64,000 nucleotides of DNA, from contig JBBAWM010000003.1 of NCBI GenBank assembly GCA_040397175.1, positions 1 through 64,000 of the forward strand, written 5' to 3'. The position numbers and the translations under genes were made by a program. How positions within the stretch are numbered: position 1 is the first letter of the stretch; every line of letters starts with the position of its first letter. Positions 17,287 through 63,003 of the stretch are shown here, one piece after another. This DNA is from Candidatus Limnocylindrus sp. Lineage in GTDB: Bacteria > Chloroflexota > Limnocylindria > Limnocylindrales > Limnocylindraceae. The notes under the pieces were generated by a model that had not been told where the DNA came from, made no database searches, and saw nothing but the letters and a program-made list of their open reading frames with translations.

Positions 17287-18153
17287 TCACGCGCCAGAGA
17301 TCTGCAACAACGCACGCGCATCTCGTAGCAGCGAGCCGCCCGGCGTATCAAGCTCCTCCAGCACATCGAAGTGATCACGGTCAGGAACGGTCGCGAGCGA
17401 AATGGCGGCGTGGCTCGCCCACTTCTCGCGGAGGAGCTCCGACTGTCGATGGAACTCCGACGGCTCATGCTCACCAACTCGCAGAAGGACCGGAATGTTG
17501 CGCTGTGGCACGTAGTTGACAGGTGAGAGATGTTTCGCTTCGTCGGCACTCATGCCGACCAGGTTGTTGACGTAGCTCTCAGCAATCGGCTCGAGGTCAA
17601 ACGCACCTCCGATAAGTAGCAGCCCTGAAATCGCACTCCGCACGTGGGGCGGCGCCAGTTCCGTCACCAGTGTTGCGGCAAGGTGCGCTCCTGCAGAGTG
17701 CCCAGCCGCAACAATCCTGCTCACGTCACAGCCGAGCGTCGCCGCGTGCTCGATCAGATATGCCACGGCTGCCGAGGCTTCCGCAACGATCGCTGGGAGG
17801 GTGGCGGCTGGCGCCAGGGAGTAGCCGACGGCAACATGGGTTGCACCGAGCGGAGCGAGCGTTGCCGCGTATCGACCGCCGTCATCAATCGCGCCCTCCT
17901 GCCACCACCCACCATGAAACATCAGTAGCGTGGGGTGGGCTCCTTCGCGATCCGCAAAGATCTCGAGACGGTTGGCCTCACTCGGTCCATATGCGACGCG
18001 GTGATAGACGCCACTCGCCTGTGCGGTACTTCGTACGAGTACGGTGCGCTCGCGGCCGGCTGACATGGAACCAGCGGCGTCTCGCGCGGTTCGGCTTGGC
18101 GAGTACTCCGCATCAAGCCAGGCTCGACGCTGCGCGTTAGGGAACGAGGTCAA
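17287..18153 (-). CDS. Alpha/beta hydrolase, probable kynurenine formamidase (AFMID-type)
   Basis: EYSPS, FHGGWWQ, GHSAGAHLA, DHFD; lies directly upstream of kynU. Confidence 0.8.
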   Translation of the reverse strand: MTSFPNAQRRAWLDAEYSPSRTARDAAGSMSAGRERTVLVRSTAQASGVYHRVAYGPSEANRLEIFADREGAHPTLLMFHGGWWQEGAIDDGGRYAATLAPLGATHVAVGYSLAPAATLPAIVAEASAAVAYLIEHAATLGCDVSRIVAAGHSAGAHLAATLVTELAPPHVRSAISGLLLIGGAFDLEPIAESYVNNLVGMSADEAKHLSPVNYVPQRNIPVLLRVGEHEPSEFHRQSELLREKWASHAAISLATVPDRDHFDVLEELDTPGGSLLRDARALLQISGA

Positions 18154-22228: not shown

Positions 22229-23503
22229 ATGGCTGGACGAGCAGCGAAAAGCGCTCCAAAGCGGGCAGCTGGCACCTCGAAGGCGAAGGGCACGTTGGCA
22301 AAGGCCGGCCTCGCCCCCGGTCGCACCGCCACGATTGTCTTGGGCCTCGCCGCCGCCATCGGCATCGGCATTGCCATCTGGTCCCAGATCCCAACCCAGG
22401 GAGCCATCGCTGCCAAAGAGGGTGAGTGGAAGATCGTGATCTCCGCCGGTCGCCATACCGCCGGCGACGTCACCTTCGATCTGAACAATCGCGGCACCGT
22501 GCCGCATGAGTTCCTCGTCGTGGCCACCGAAAAGACCGCCGCGCAGCTCCTTGAAAGCGTCGACGCCACGACCAACCGCATCGACGAGGCCAACCTTGAC
22601 GTTGTGGATGAGCAACCAGAGTACGACCCCGGCACGACCGCCACGCTGACCGTCAAACTTCCGAAGGGCCACTACGTGGTGATGTGCAACATCGAGGGCC
22701 ACTACAAGAACGGCATGTACGCCGATCTCACCATCACCGACTCCCCGGACGGATCTGTGGTCGAACGCACTCCTGCACCTGAGCCGGTTGCCGACATTGG
22801 GCCAGTCTCTGGTACCGAGAAGGAGTGGGCCATTGAAATTTCGTCCAGCCTGCATGAGGCTGGGACGACCACCTTCAACTTGCAGAACCTTGGCACCATC
22901 GCCCACGAGTTCCTCGTGGTGCGCAGCGACAAGACATCATCGCAGCTGCTTGCGAGCGTTGATGCCGCGACGAATCGAATCGACGAAGCGCAACTCAACG
23001 TTGTGAATGAGCAGCCGGAATACAAGCCGGGTGTACCAGGCATGGTGACCGTGAACCTTGAGCCGGGCCACTACGTGGTGATGTGCAACATTGCCGGCCA
23101 CTACAAGGCGGGCATGTACGCCGACCTTGAAGTTGTAGCGGCGAAGCCGGCAACGGGTGCCGTAAAGGGCACCGAGAAGGAGTGGAACATCTCGCTCGAC
23201 TCGTACTCGCACACTGCAGGCTCGATTACGTTTGACCTTACGAATGCGGGCACGATTGCCCACGAATTCCTCGTGGTACGCACCGATATCACCTCAACCG
23301 ACCTGCTTGCCAGCGTCGACGCCACGACCCATCGCATCGACGAGGCCCTCCTGGATGTGGTGAATGAGCAGCCAGAGTACCTACCAGGCGTGCCAGGCAC
23401 CGTCACCGTTGACCTGCCGCCAGGGCACTACGTAGTGATGTGCAATATCGAGGGCCATTACAAGGCCGGCATGTACGCCGACTTTGACGTTCTCGCCCCG
23501 TAA
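22229..23503 (+). CDS. Membrane-anchored protein with three tandem cupredoxin (auracyanin/sulfocyanin-like) domains
   Basis: One TM helix followed by three repeats of EW...HEFLVV...YVVMCNIxGHYKxGMY. Confidence 0.88.
   Translation: MAGRAAKSAPKRAAGTSKAKGTLAKAGLAPGRTATIVLGLAAAIGIGIAIWSQIPTQGAIAAKEGEWKIVISAGRHTAGDVTFDLNNRGTVPHEFLVVATEKTAAQLLESVDATTNRIDEANLDVVDEQPEYDPGTTATLTVKLPKGHYVVMCNIEGHYKNGMYADLTITDSPDGSVVERTPAPEPVADIGPVSGTEKEWAIEISSSLHEAGTTTFNLQNLGTIAHEFLVVRSDKTSSQLLASVDAATNRIDEAQLNVVNEQPEYKPGVPGMVTVNLEPGHYVVMCNIAGHYKAGMYADLEVVAAKPATGAVKGTEKEWNISLDSYSHTAGSITFDLTNAGTIAHEFLVVRTDITSTDLLASVDATTHRIDEALLDVVNEQPEYLPGVPGTVTVDLPPGHYVVMCNIEGHYKAGMYADFDVLAP
22414..23500 (+). repeat. Three intragenic repeats of about 330-390 bp (cupredoxin domains); boundaries approximate
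   Basis: Recurrent GGGCACTACGT(G/A)GTGATGTGCAA-like segments near 22667, 23066 and 23422, and GAGTTCCTCGT-like segments in each unit. Confidence 0.85.
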
Positions 23504-25217: not shown

Positions 25218-25250
25218 CGAGTCAGAGGCGGCTTCTGGTATCGTGTGCGC

Positions 25251-25301
25251 ATGACTAGCATGCAGCTCCGCGCACTTGAGGGTGAACCGTCGATCTGTTG
25301 A
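25251..25301 (+). CDS. Putative leaderless leader peptide MTSMQLRALEGEPSIC upstream of sseA
   Basis: TGgTATCGT-6nt-ATG; 16 codons; shares GEPSIC with the cysK leader. Confidence 0.75.
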   Translation: MTSMQLRALEGEPSIC

Positions 25302-25361: not shown

Positions 25362-26249
25362 ATGAGCAACGTACCTCTTGATCCAACAGAAAAGTTCCAG
25401 GAGTACGCCACTCCGGGCGCACTCGTCTCAACCGAGTGGCTCGCCGCCAACCTCAACACACCAGGGCTGGTTGTGGTGGAGTCAGACGAAGACACGCTCC
25501 TCTACGAGACTGGGCACATCCCAGGAAGCGTCAAGGTGGACTGGCACACCGACCTGAACGACCCCGTGTCTCGCGACTATGTCGGACCTGAAGACTTTGC
25601 GGCGCTGATGTCACGCAAGGGGATCGACCGCGACACCACCGTGGTCTTCTACGGCGACAAGTCAAACTGGTGGGCCGCCTACGCCCTCTGGGTCTTTCGC
25701 CTCTTCGGCCACACCGAGGTGCGCCTCCTTGATGGCGGTCGCCAGAAGTGGGAGGCAGAGGGTCGCGAGATGTCCAAGGCTGTGCCGACGCGCGCGGCCA
25801 CAAGCTACCCGCTCTCTCCGCGAAACGACAGTGATCTTCGTGCCTACCGCGAACAGGTGATCGAGCACGTCGGCGCCAAGGGCTGCATGGTGGACGTCCG
25901 TTCACCACAAGAGTTCAGTGGCGAGCTGACGCACATGCCCGACTACCCACAGGAGGGGACGCTCCGTGGTGGCCACATCCCAGGAGCGAAGTCTGTCCCG
26001 TGGAAGCGAGCCGCCAATGACGACGGCACATTCAAGGGGGTCGCCGACCTTCGCGCCATTTATGAGGGTGAAAAGGGCCTAGCGGCCGACGACGATGTGA
26101 TTGCCTACTGCCGAATTGGTGAGCGGTCGAGCCACACCTGGTTTGTGCTCACCTACCTGCTCGGCTTCAAGAACGTCCGCAACTACGACGGGTCGTGGTC
26201 AGAGTGGGGCAACGCCGTTCGACTTCCGATCGCCGTCGGCGCCGAATAG
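25362..26249 (+). CDS. sseA: Thiosulfate/3-mercaptopyruvate sulfurtransferase (tandem rhodanese)
   Basis: LVSTEWL, GHIPG twice, active-site [17 protein letters not shown]; SD GAGGAG. Confidence 0.92.
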
Positions 26250-26264
26250 GCGCCGCGCACACAC

Positions 26265-26711
26265 ATGTCGGACGCGGCCGCAGCACAGCTTCCACCCGGA
26301 CTCGCTGCGGTCGCTGCCGACTTTGCCGACACGCCTCGCGAGATGCGCCTCGAGCTGCTGCTCGAATATGCAGATCGGTTGAAGCCACTTCCAGAACCGT
26401 ACGCGTCGCAAACCAACCTGATGGAACGCGTTGAAGAGTGCCAGTCGCCGCTCTTTGCGATCGCGGAGGTGGTCGGTGACAGCGTGCGGATCCATGCGAC
26501 GGCACCGCAAGAGTCGCCAACTACCCGGGCGTTTGCATGCATCATGCAGCTCGGCCTTAGCGGCCTTACACCAGAAGAGATTCTCGCCGTGCCGGCCGCT
26601 GCTCCACTCCAGCTGGGCCTGACGGAGTTAGTCTCGCCACTTCGCATGCGCGGCGCAACGGGGCTGCTCGCACGGATCCAGCGCCAGGTGCGCGCCGCAA
26701 TCAGCGCCTGA
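26265..26711 (+). CDS. sufE: SufE family sulfur acceptor
   Basis: LLEYADRL, VEECQSP, ESPTTRAFA, VSPLRMRG. Confidence 0.85.
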   Translation: MSDAAAAQLPPGLAAVAADFADTPREMRLELLLEYADRLKPLPEPYASQTNLMERVEECQSPLFAIAEVVGDSVRIHATAPQESPTTRAFACIMQLGLSGLTPEEILAVPAAAPLQLGLTELVSPLRMRGATGLLARIQRQVRAAISA

Positions 26712-60406: not shown

Positions 60407-60835
60407 CTAGTTTCCTGTCACCTCAAGATCAACGAACATGCCCTGCTGGTAATGGTCTGCGATGTTGCACATGAGCACATAGTGGCCGGCTGGCAGGTCG
60501 ATGGTAAAGGTGCCAGTGACCCCCGTCTGAAGGTCCCCGTACTCCCCGGGCGACGTGAGCTTCTCCTCGTCGAGGCGCATGGTGACAGGATCAACCTGGG
60601 CGACGAGGTCACGCCCCGGTACATCGGTTTGGATGATCACGAACTCATGGTCAATGTTGCCCTGGCTATCAATGTAGAAGGTGATCGGTCCTGCCACGTG
60701 GCTCGGTGTGTTTGTCGCGATCTTCCACTCCTTGACCGCCGCGATGATTGCGGTGGTCTTGACGATTTGTGCGCTCGCAATCGGTGCGCCAATCAAGACC
60801 AAGAGCAGTGCCCCAACTCCAACAAATCGCTTCAT
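60407..60835 (-). CDS. Secreted single-domain cupredoxin, paralog of the triple-domain protein
   Basis: Signal peptide, KEWKI, HEFVII, YVLMCNIADHYQQGM. Confidence 0.85.
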   Translation of the reverse strand: MKRFVGVGALLLVLIGAPIASAQIVKTTAIIAAVKEWKIATNTPSHVAGPITFYIDSQGNIDHEFVIIQTDVPGRDLVAQVDPVTMRLDEEKLTSPGEYGDLQTGVTGTFTIDLPAGHYVLMCNIADHYQQGMFVDLEVTGN

Positions 60836-60897
60836 GCTCTCAGTGTGCATCCGCCCTGGAGGAGCCGGTAAACCCACGTGTGCCGATCGGGATTCTC

Positions 60898-61788
60898 CTA
60901 GATTCCCGAACCCTCGCCCGCCACCTCATCGGTGCGCACACGCGCCTGAGAAAGCTGACTCCCAGCAGGAACGCTCTTCGTAAGCCATACGTTGCCGCCA
61001 ATCGTCGAACCACGCCCAACCGTGATTCGGCCAAGGATCGTTGCCCCCGAGTAGATCACCACGTCGTCTTCAATGATCGGGTGGCGAGGCTGACCCTTCA
61101 CCAGGTTGCCATCGTCACCCTTCGGGAAGCTCTTGGAGCCGAGGGTAACTCCCTGGTAGAGGCGCACGCCACTGCCAATGATTGCCGTCTCGCCAATGAC
61201 CACGCCGGTTCCATGGTCAATGAAGAAGCGCTCGCCAATCGTGGCGCCAGGGTGGATATCAATCCCCGTGGCTGAGTGCGCCGCCTCCGACGCAATGCGT
61301 GGAAGCAGCGGCACATTCAACGTGTACAAGAGGTGCGCCATGCGGTGATCGATCATGGCGCGAACGCCTGGGTAGCCATGCAAGATCTCGGAACGGCTGC
61401 GTGCCGCGGGGTCGCCGGCAAACGCTGTGGCGATATCACCCTCTACGAGCGTGCGGATTGCAGGGAGCTCCGCTGCAAACGCGGCAACCGCCCGATCAAC
61501 GTGATCGAGAGTGAGCCCCTCACCAGGTCGCTCCGCCGCGAACAAGACCGTGCATCGCCGAACGTGCTCGCGTAGACCGGCGAGCGCCGCCGCAAGGTGT
61601 GCGGCTACCGCTGCCTCACCATCGGCTGCAACGCCAAGCTCACGCGGGAAAAGTGCGGCACGAAGCTCAGCCAGCACGCGGGTAATCTCACCGCGCGATG
61701 GGCGGTCGCCTGCCGCCACCGCACCACCCGCGAGGGCGGCGTCGGCGGCGATCAGCGCGCGACTGAGTGCAGCAGCATCAACGCTCAC
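60898..61788 (-). CDS. cysE: Serine O-acetyltransferase (EpsC-type)
   Basis: [43 protein letters not shown]; GTG overlaps the cysK stop. Confidence 0.92.
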
Positions 61789-62774
61789 AGCGTGATGCCG
61801 TTCGCATCGAAGAGGCCCTCGTAGAGCGCGGTGCTCAGGTAGCGCTCGCCCGAATCTGGCAGCACCACCACGATGGTCTTCCCCGCGTTCTCCGGCAGGT
61901 GTGCCAACTTCAGCGCAACATGCGCTGCTGCACCGCATGAGATACCAACGAGAATCCCCTCTTCGCGAGCAATGCGACGCGCCATCGCGATCGCCTCCTC
62001 GTTCGTTACCAACTCCACCTGATCGATTAGCGTGAGGTCAAGAATGTCTGGCACGAAGCCGGCGCCGATCCCCTGGATCTTGTGCGGGGCCGGCTGATTC
62101 GGCTCGCCTGCGAGTCGTTGGGTAATGACCGGACTTGCCGCAGGCTCCACTGCTACAACACGCACCGAAGCGCCACGTCCCTTCTTGAAGTGACGTGCAA
62201 CGCCGGTGATCGTTCCACCGGTGCCGACGCCCGAAACAAAGATGTCGACCTTTCCTGCGGTGTCTTCCCAGATCTCTGGGCCTGTGGTGGACTCGTGAAT
62301 CGCTGGTCCCGCCTCGTTCTTGAACTGCTGCAGCAACACGTACCGCGCAGGATCCGATGCGGCGATCTCTTCGGCGCGCGCAATGGCACCCGACATACCC
62401 TTCGCACCTTCGGTGAGCACCAGTGTGGCGCCGTAAGCAACGATGAGCTTGCGTCGCTCGATGCTGACGGTGTCGGGCATGGTCAGCGTGACCTTGTAGC
62501 CGCGCGCGGCGCCCACCATCGCAAGTGCGATGCCAGTGTTGCCGCTTGTTGGCTCAACGATCTCCATTCCTGGCTTCAGCGCGCCGCGCTTCTCGGCGTC
62601 GAGCACCATGGCGGTGCCGAGGCGGCACTTTACGGAGTATGCGGGGTTGCGCCCTTCGATCTTGGCCAGCACGGTGGCGGCGGCGCCATCAGTCACGCGA
62701 TTCAATCGCACGAGTGGAGTTCGGCCAATAGTGAGAGCGTTGTCGGTAAAGATCTCTGGATTCTGAACAGTCAT
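61785..62774 (-). CDS. cysK: Cysteine synthase A
   Basis: [49 protein letters not shown]. Confidence 0.96.
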
Positions 62775-62856
62775 CTTGGGTACCTCAGGCTACGTGGTGG
62801 GGTGGTGGAGTTCATCCGCCGCCCCCTCTGCCGTTTGGTCCCTGGTTGCGTGTGCC

Positions 62857-62949
62857 TCAGCGCGCGCAGGACGGCCCGAAGAAGAGCGACGGGCATCGAC
62901 AGATGCTCGGCTCGCCAGCGGCTTGGGCAATAAGGTCGGCTGCGGTCAT
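62857..62949 (-). CDS. Putative leaderless Cys-containing leader peptide MTAADLIAQAAGEPSICRCPSLFFGPSCAR upstream of cysK
   Basis: TACACT-6nt-ATG; 3 Cys codons; shares GEPSIC with the sseA leader. Confidence 0.78.
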   Translation of the reverse strand: MTAADLIAQAAGEPSICRCPSLFFGPSCAR

Positions 62950-63003
62950 GGGGGGAGTGTATCGCCTACGCGCGGAGGTCGTTACTGCAACGTCTCGCAA
63001 CCG

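Follow-up and report, generated by a model that had tools for sequence, protein, structure and literature searches.

A conserved leader peptide with the motif GEPSIC upstream of cysK-cysE, sseA-sufE and DUF4395 genes in Candidatus Limnocylindrus: a putative cysteine attenuator

The window, a stretch of 64,000 nucleotides from Candidatus Limnocylindrus sp. (Chloroflexota; contig JBBAWM010000003.1, positions 1 to 64,000), contains on the minus strand the genes for cysteine synthase A (cysK, 61785..62774; TIGR01139, 443 bits, above cut-off) and serine O-acetyltransferase (cysE, 60898..61788; NF041874 above cut-off, TIGR01172 with E 1e-48), the GTG start codon of cysE overlapping the stop codon of cysK (GTGA). 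Upstream of cysK on the same strand lies a short open reading frame (uORF, 62857..62949) for the 30-aa peptide MTAADLIAQAAGEPSICRCPSLFFGPSCAR*, whose end at 62857 is followed after 82 nt by the cysK ATG (62774) with its Shine-Dalgarno (SD) sequence GAGGU (62782..62786, minus strand). A −10 hexamer, TACACT (62956..62961, minus strand), is found 6 nt before the ATG of the uORF at 62949; translation probably starts leaderless. The uORF contains a conserved window of 13 codons, DLIAQAAGEPSIC (62899..62937, minus strand), which aligns to DLLxRLEGEP[SC]xC of sister-family leaders (see below) and the final codon of which, UGU at 62901-62899, encodes the anchor cysteine, Cys17. The motif GEPSIC comprises residues 12-17. 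The peptide has a CRC sequence and one further cysteine downstream, no two Cys codons being consecutive.

A second copy is located on the plus strand of the window. The −10 hexamer TATCGT (25239..25244) stands 6 nt before the ATG of the uORF MTSMQLRALEGEPSIC* (25251..25301), in which GEPSIC comprises residues 11-16 and the single Cys codon (UGU) is directly followed by UGA. Downstream, also on the plus strand, are the genes for an sseA-like rhodanese sulfurtransferase (25362..26249; NF008557 with E 4e-32, below cut-off; start set by ortholog alignment) and for a SufE-family protein (26265..26711; PF02657 above cut-off). The first-pass annotation of this DNA had placed TACACT (62961-62956), the 6-nt spacer, the ATG, the 82-nt gap and the GEPSIC residues in both peptides, all of which coordinates are correct, and had assigned both downstream operons to sulfur and cysteine metabolism, with which the family matches to cysK, cysE, SseA-type rhodanese and SufE agree. 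Near each sulfur locus lies a sulfocyanin-like copper-protein gene (22229-23503, plus strand; 60407-60877, minus strand), recognized by PF06525 with three stretches and by a weak TIGR03094 match. The window genome (G000, 91.5% complete) yielded no PAPS reductase or sulfite reductase family, and its metB-like and Rrf2 genes have no GEPSIC-type leader. Upstream of G000:C1 226135 (minus strand; L393), in the interval from a tRNA gene to the leaderless metB-like gene, there are three copies of a repeat of about 28 nt, CAGCCCCGCCGCAG....

The back-translated GEPSIC pattern has two matches in the window and none in 100 shuffles, and in the six frames of the genome (1.38 Mb, ~63% GC) GEPSIC occurs exactly twice, both times inside the cysK and sseA leaders. 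For the lineage, a median genome size of 1.307 Mb, 63.15% GC and a median intergenic length of 12 bp are reported (PMC13212565). Pattern matches were present in 39 of 41 same-genus genomes and in 12 of 109 sister-family genomes, the reversed pattern having none in the genus. Short ORFs before cysK (20), sseA (20) or a DUF4395 gene (28) account for 68 of the 72 genus matches; the remaining four are in unrelated frames, all ending in TGC. Since the pattern itself fixes the motif, the association was retested starting from the genes, and among the genes with DNA upstream a leader was found before 20/20 cysK orthologs (from 22 matches, of which 2 adjoin contig edges), 21/21 sseA orthologs (23 matches, 2 at edges; two leaders read GEPAIC) and 26/26 DUF4395 genes (28 matches, 2 at edges), all these counts coming from related genomes and not from independent samples. 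The set of sulfur-linked leader peptides that had been proposed from the two copies in the window is thus conserved, the motif being neither absent from orthologous leaders nor random with respect to sulfur genes, and DUF4395 is added as a third target. The window genome itself has no DUF4395 match. One sseA match (G045; L455, G045:C6:12708-13625) spans one TGA stop.

The cysK ortholog (21 genomes) and a CysM-type synthase 40-44% identical to it (17 genomes) never occur together in one genome. At two annotated CysM-type loci the DUF4395 leader heads a DUF4395-moeZ-cysO-cysM-mec-like operon, the genes presumably belonging to the pathway for which these names are used in mycobacteria. Other DUF4395 copies stand alone or precede genes of nucleoside metabolism. 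The CysM-type match in G009 spans one TAA. Judged by their equal length and the common ending AR*, the cysK and DUF4395 leaders are clearly related by descent. The sseA leaders and all DUF4395 leaders but one are the single-Cys leaders of the genus, and across the family the length ranges from 16 to about 40 aa. Among CysK relatives from metagenomes, of which 77 of 80 loci could be scanned upstream, a leader was present only in two that are 90-92% identical.

In pairwise comparisons of codons 2-15/16, pN/pS was 0.25 for the cysK leaders (codons 2-16), 0.13 for the DUF4395 leaders and 0.15 for the sseA leaders versus 1.7-3.7 in the other frames (pairs not independent). The codons before the Cys are under purifying selection at the peptide level, and the synonymous-biased conservation in related genomes that had been set beforehand as a check is what was found. 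In the region after the Cys, pN/pS was 1.0 in DUF4395 leaders, and cysK leaders showed only non-synonymous changes. The 32 sister-family leaders also share residues outside the search pattern, namely D at −12 (29 leaders), L at −11 (29), L or I at −10 (32) and R at −8 (31), the Arg being encoded by four different codons, and their codons −18 to −13 are neutral (pN/pS 1.02). The common ancestry of the cysK and DUF4395 leaders is what one would expect of a non-functional remnant of a duplicated promoter region; that the motif is such a remnant, or a chance match, deserves almost no credence in view of the shuffles, of the two genomic matches both falling in leaders and of the missing reversed matches, and was rejected because of the frame-specific selection and the fixed gene association. 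Selection at the amino-acid level could likewise mean that the uORF makes a small thiol peptide acting in trans, the RNA features being secondary. This is very improbable, since the length of the peptide varies so widely, its post-Cys part is neutral or RNA-constrained, and the invariant anchor codon described next and the fixed 5′ position at three operons are cis features.

The anchor Cys is encoded by UGU in 67/67 genus leaders though the pattern allowed UGC, and genome-wide (G000) UGU makes up 19% of the Cys codons; a further 25/25 leaders that were read also have UGU. The sole tRNA-Cys found carries the anticodon GCA, so that UGU is read by wobble. The codon of Cys19 is UGC in 19/19 cysK leaders. 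As an outside control 29 actinobacterial DUF4395 leader loci were used (L407-L436; one unpublished genome left out), of which 23 could be parsed: in these NF042934-type leaders the anchor Cys is UGU in 23/23, the upstream Cys is UGC in 22/23, and DUF4395 is the next gene in 21/23. A paper on a UGU anchor rule was not found in the literature search.

In arrest peptides the distance between a conserved window and the stall site is fixed, and the N-terminus is free. The leader family has a conserved 13-residue window at a constant distance from the Cys behind a variable N-terminus, and the stop codon adjoins the sole Cys in 20/20 sseA leaders and in the two GEPAIC variants, as might be expected if, in the manner of TnaC, free cysteine or a sulfane/sulfide species bound in the tunnel and stalled the ribosome at the Cys or the stop codon. 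We consider such an arrest quite unlikely, since the UGU rule points to decoding, since related leaders without EGEP carry CxC in 16/16 cases, as a charged-tRNA sensor predicts, and since a stall, as modelled, would switch a biosynthetic operon on, which fits shortage, not excess.

A TAnnnT word is located 6-7 nt before the start codon in 66/67 genus leaders (a −10 hexamer was found in 20/20 sseA leaders) and an SD-like word in none; genome-wide the commonest TAnnnT spacing is 6 nt, seen in 67 of 675 ATG genes of a crude set. Five metatranscriptome runs contained 5-7% of the words, from sparse contigs only. In the cysK leader RNA the Cys17 codon lies in the loop of a predicted hairpin, GCAUC-UGUC-GAUGC (62893..62906, minus strand), which is similar to the 1:2 hairpin of classical attenuators and possibly a pause hairpin. 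It is unchanged in 20/20 cysK leaders and more stable than 99% of its synonymous recodings. At least 97% of such recodings were outdone by the Cys-codon hairpin in 11 of the 12 distinct cysK and DUF4395 windows of the genus; for sseA this held in just 1 of 6 windows, and it was rare among sister families. Two-sided changes are seen in 2 of 23 DUF4395 leaders and probably go back to one event. The synonymous codon differences between the two copies, including an AGC/TCG switch of the Ser codon, had been taken in the first-pass annotation as selection on the peptide rather than on a DNA or RNA motif. The pN/pS values of 0.13-0.25 bear out the first half of this statement, but not the second: each Ser codon rides with a different downstream codon that restores the Cys-loop hairpin, so that peptide and RNA are both constrained and the switch, being tied to the hairpin arm, is no evidence against an RNA motif.

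Two mutually exclusive pairings further along the leader and a C-rich tract had also been put forward, and all lie where they had been placed. The pairing CAUCUGUCG:CGGCGGAUG over the Ile-Cys codons is disfavored: of the 20 cysK leaders 14 can form it perfectly, 4 have uncompensated breaks in it, and the 2 most divergent no longer have it. The second pairing persists among cysK leaders. In it segment A, CCGUCGCUCUUC (62881..62892, minus strand), which begins 9 nt past the first nucleotide of codon Cys17, is predicted to pair with segment B, AGAGGGGGCGGCGG (62816..62829, minus strand); the pairing can form in all 20 cysK leaders, with 11/12 pairs in 18 of them and, with changed pairs, 10/12 in the divergent leader L054 and 12/12 in L062. 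Alternatively B may pair weakly with the C-rich tract CCACCACCCCACCAC (62794..62808, minus strand) within a predicted SD-closing fold, in which AGGGACC (62837..62843, minus strand) would be the OFF-fold partner of the SD region GGUACCC, a weak prediction from the centroid fold and from folding in which the ORF was unavailable. The cysK leader of the window is less stably folded than its own shuffles (z +1.3), and Rfam gave nothing at gathering level besides a tRNA and otherwise chance-level matches.

An intrinsic terminator with a U tract was not found between 62700 and 63100, in agreement with the first-pass annotation. Its absence, the C-rich tract ahead of the SD sequence and the presence of rho (TIGR00767 above cut-off) suggest that the same codon sensor might act on termination by Rho, whose loading site would be hidden by the paused ribosome or by the A:B helix, the C-rich tract being a candidate for such a site; that the sseA leader is without an SD-closing helix would fit, and Rho has been proposed for actinobacterial cys leaders, a prediction that is termed weak there (PMC1262725). 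An output via Rho is nevertheless unlikely, since the post-stop spacers have no C>G bias (29 C and 25 G in the window copy), the C-rich tract is missing in L062, sister-family leaders retain an anti-SD complementary to the SD sequence, and the mycobacterial leader Ms5788A works on translation (10.1101/834739).

In 27 sister-family leaders a segment beginning 8 nt after the first base of the Cys codon pairs with a CUCCUCG block, which is the alternative partner of the SD sequence. A:B was paired in 87% and B:SD in 80% of cells versus 42-60% in slid controls; covariation of these helices was not above shuffles, with no two-sided change in A:B and 25-266 of 500 for B:SD. A ribosome with the Cys codon in its A site would end about at the start of segment A. 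Once the ribosome passes the Cys, the modelled cost of opening the SD in sister-family leaders goes up from 8.2 to 12.8 kcal/mol. When the ribosome was represented by a mask, the SD opened more easily with the ribosome at the Cys than with the ORF unavailable in 16/17 cysK, 8/11 and 12/16 DUF4395 and 22/27 sister-family leaders, and a shuffled-ORF control separated the DUF4395 groups (8/11, 11/16) and the sister families (18/27). Shuffling the post-Cys ORF barely altered SD opening for cysK (7.1 vs 7.6; 5 for and 2 against, of 17), and since the values are nearly the same, no specific A:B effect is established for cysK. With a longer footprint mask 16 of 19 cysK leaders were for, and of 27 genus DUF4395 leaders 10 were for and 14 against, the SD of these 14 being more open with the ribosome at the stop than at the Cys.

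Folding with the long mask gave 1/19 for sseA, and a conserved switch was not found there; neither an SD-closing helix nor a C-rich Rho site, both of which were sought before sseA, is conserved, and the motif is absent before ten sister-family sseA homologs. With its one Cys, an adjoining stop and no switch to be seen, the sseA leader is the copy least well explained. Directly before the sseA homologs at three sister-family loci (L461, L462, L465) there are short GRCxC ORFs inside the operon, overlapping the end of the upstream gene, which are possible coupled internal Cys sensors.

For cysK-cysE we regard it as probable that the uORF is a leaderless translational attenuator that senses charged tRNA-Cys at UGU and acts by release of the SD sequence. 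The uORF would be translated leaderless from its AUG. When charged tRNA-Cys is scarce, the ribosome would wait at the UGU of Cys17, the pause possibly being aided by the nascent [DE]L[LI]xx[LVA][EA]GEP[SC]x chain; segment A, just past the leading edge of the ribosome, would then capture B and leave the cysK SD free. When cysteine is plentiful, the ribosome would run across A, and B or its neighbor would close the SD, possibly followed by polarity through Rho. The output on cysE would come from translational coupling to cysK. As modelled, SD release fits most DUF4395 leaders and is partly supported for cysK; a precedent for it is Ms5788A, which attenuates translation ahead of a DUF4395-type gene and cysA2 (10.1101/834739). 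The same sensor would thus head the cysK-cysE, sseA-sufE and DUF4395 operons as a ribosome-run regulon.

In the sister families DLLxRLEGEP[SC]xC is found upstream of DUF4395. From the 115 matching class genomes, 29 lower-scoring DUF4395 upstream regions were fetched. A contig end truncates 2 of them and another 4 are without a Cys ORF; among the 23 that contain one, 7 have LEGEP and the 16 with CxC lack it. Some related sister-family leaders have CC. A GTDB-wide pattern scan gave at least 100 stretches, of which 32 were judged true members on the basis of xLLxRLEGEP[SC]xC in a short ORF with DUF4395 downstream where the DNA allowed; by record title 31 are Chloroflexota-type and 1 is Methylomirabilota. 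A single Cys among the last five codons is seen in 16 of these 32 leaders, and a single Cys from −14 to the stop in only 3. In a phylum-wide profile search of 401 genomes the 12 matches at E 2.4e-8 or better were all previously found members, the next 22, which were the last to be inspected, were no leaders, and among the inspected matches no member was found outside the class. A promoter-plus-motif pattern run on 301 class genomes matched 9 times outside the genus, twice in true leaders and 7 times by chance; three cyanophycinase-like gene starts are among the chance matches and were rejected. In 1.84 billion proteins there were 14 matches; of the 13 that were read, 10 have the motif, either within a short protein or at a C-terminus; four that were looked up are all named only 'hypothetical'. 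The ESM Atlas gave no usable match to the leader peptide.

Before the 30 best-scoring DUF4395 genes of the class, which are mostly from another clade, EGEP was found in 0/30 and other Cys uORFs in 4. At L097, L105 and L111 (family f3) a different Cys-containing uORF family, RDWPRGxVTPRL..LC.R...GGL..C, precedes DUF4395. At many DUF4395 genes of the other clade (L083, L084, L088, L095, L099, L101, L103, L104, L106 and others) a palindrome like ATTCCGA-N5-TCGGAAT replaces the leader, and a similar palindrome word stands before the Rrf2 gene of G000 (C1, about 17340-17370); an Rrf2-type repressor may take the place of the leader at the palindrome-bearing genes. The unpublished genomes G195, G214, G221, G225, G232, G251, G256, G503, G653, G716 and G750 enter only some of the tallies and the remark on the palindrome, and no conclusion depends on them.

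The closest known systems are those of mycobacteria. In M. smegmatis polycysteine leaderless sORFs, for which two consecutive Cys are the criterion, attenuate translation, Rv2334A lies before cysK1-cysE, and conserved non-Cys residues in these sORFs have been noted without a test (10.1101/834739). As in the 'Cys ribulon' of mycobacteria (10.1101/834739; PMC4633059; NF042933), a short ORF, here putatively leaderless, heads sulfur operons at several loci per genome; the targets cysK-cysE, rhodanese sulfurtransferase and DUF4395-type membrane protein are shared, there is no intrinsic terminator, and SD sequestration is the proposed output, here by prediction. In contrast to the mycobacterial class, GEPSIC leaders have no consecutive Cys codons in the genus, and three operons share one motif. 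By prediction, the switch of the GEPSIC leaders has three parts, a post-Cys segment, an anti-SD and the SD, whereas in the mycobacterial leaders the Cys codons pair with the SD; such direct pairing was not found in GEPSIC leaders, where a local hairpin has the Cys codon in its loop and the SD partner is a separate downstream segment.

The GEPSIC family is also from a different phylum and without an HMM match: at E 10 no family, NF042933 (Ms5788A) and NF042934 (cis_reg_atten) included, matched any of 17 leader peptides and 4 sister-family peptides, two 16-aa sseA peptides being too short for the scan and two actinobacterial controls matching both models. With NF042934 (LTxRRAVDLCRVxSSLC type) it has in common a conserved window ending in a UGU-encoded anchor Cys and a similar (V)DL..R word upstream; the distance from D to Cys is 9 in NF042934 but 12 in the GEPSIC family, and the GEP of the latter is absent from NF042934. 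Homology between the two is unsupported, with a profile-profile probability of 0.6% and no hmmscan match, the peptides being very short. That no family with this motif was known, as the first-pass annotation had stated, stands inasmuch as both models are unmatched and no description was found in titles and abstracts, in a search that covered few subscription papers; the kind of leader, on the other hand, has been described, as the mycobacterial polycysteine attenuators (10.1101/834739).

The trp, his and phe attenuators and the translational attenuators of ermC and cat are the classical leader-peptide systems. Like these, the leaders have, by prediction, the sensor codon in a 1:2-like hairpin and alternative 2:3- and 3:4-like helices, and unlike these they have no run of sensor codons, no U-tailed terminator and an apparently leaderless start. 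With the metabolite-sensing arrest peptides TnaC and SpeFL they share a conserved window whose distance from the proposed stall site does not vary and, in sseA leaders, a stop adjoining the key residue, but the codon bias points to tRNA supply and not to a free ligand. Outside the window but in its genome, at G000:C4:12164-12199 (L399), a leaderless-type ORF, MANRFYFRYPA, stands ahead of a GC hairpin that has a U-rich tail and of the gene for DAHP synthase (NF006421 above cut-off); the arrangement resembles a transcription attenuator of the classical type for Phe/Tyr.

New are the single-Cys members with an arrest-peptide-like window; the kind itself is known from the leaderless polycysteine attenuators of mycobacteria. 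Tentatively, and going further than the attenuator proposed for cysK-cysE, we suggest that DLLxRLEGEPSx / ELIAxxAGEPSI may be a nascent-chain pausing motif that makes one wobble-read UGU a cysteine gauge in place of codon runs, that a streamlined lineage may have copied the module before every route that makes cysteine or moves sulfur, and that the rule of conserved window plus UGU, shared with actinobacterial leaders, may reflect an undescribed cross-phylum single-codon sensing.

Cysteine attenuation in mycobacteria was shown by experiment with runs of Cys codons; this genus keeps a 16-residue peptide with one Cys codon, which offers a minimal construct to ask whether one codon and a nascent peptide can sense an amino acid, and that UGU is invariant in two phyla makes a sharp prediction. 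For the biology of the lineage, the leader connects DUF4395 with the supply of cysteine and marks two cysteine pathways that exclude each other.
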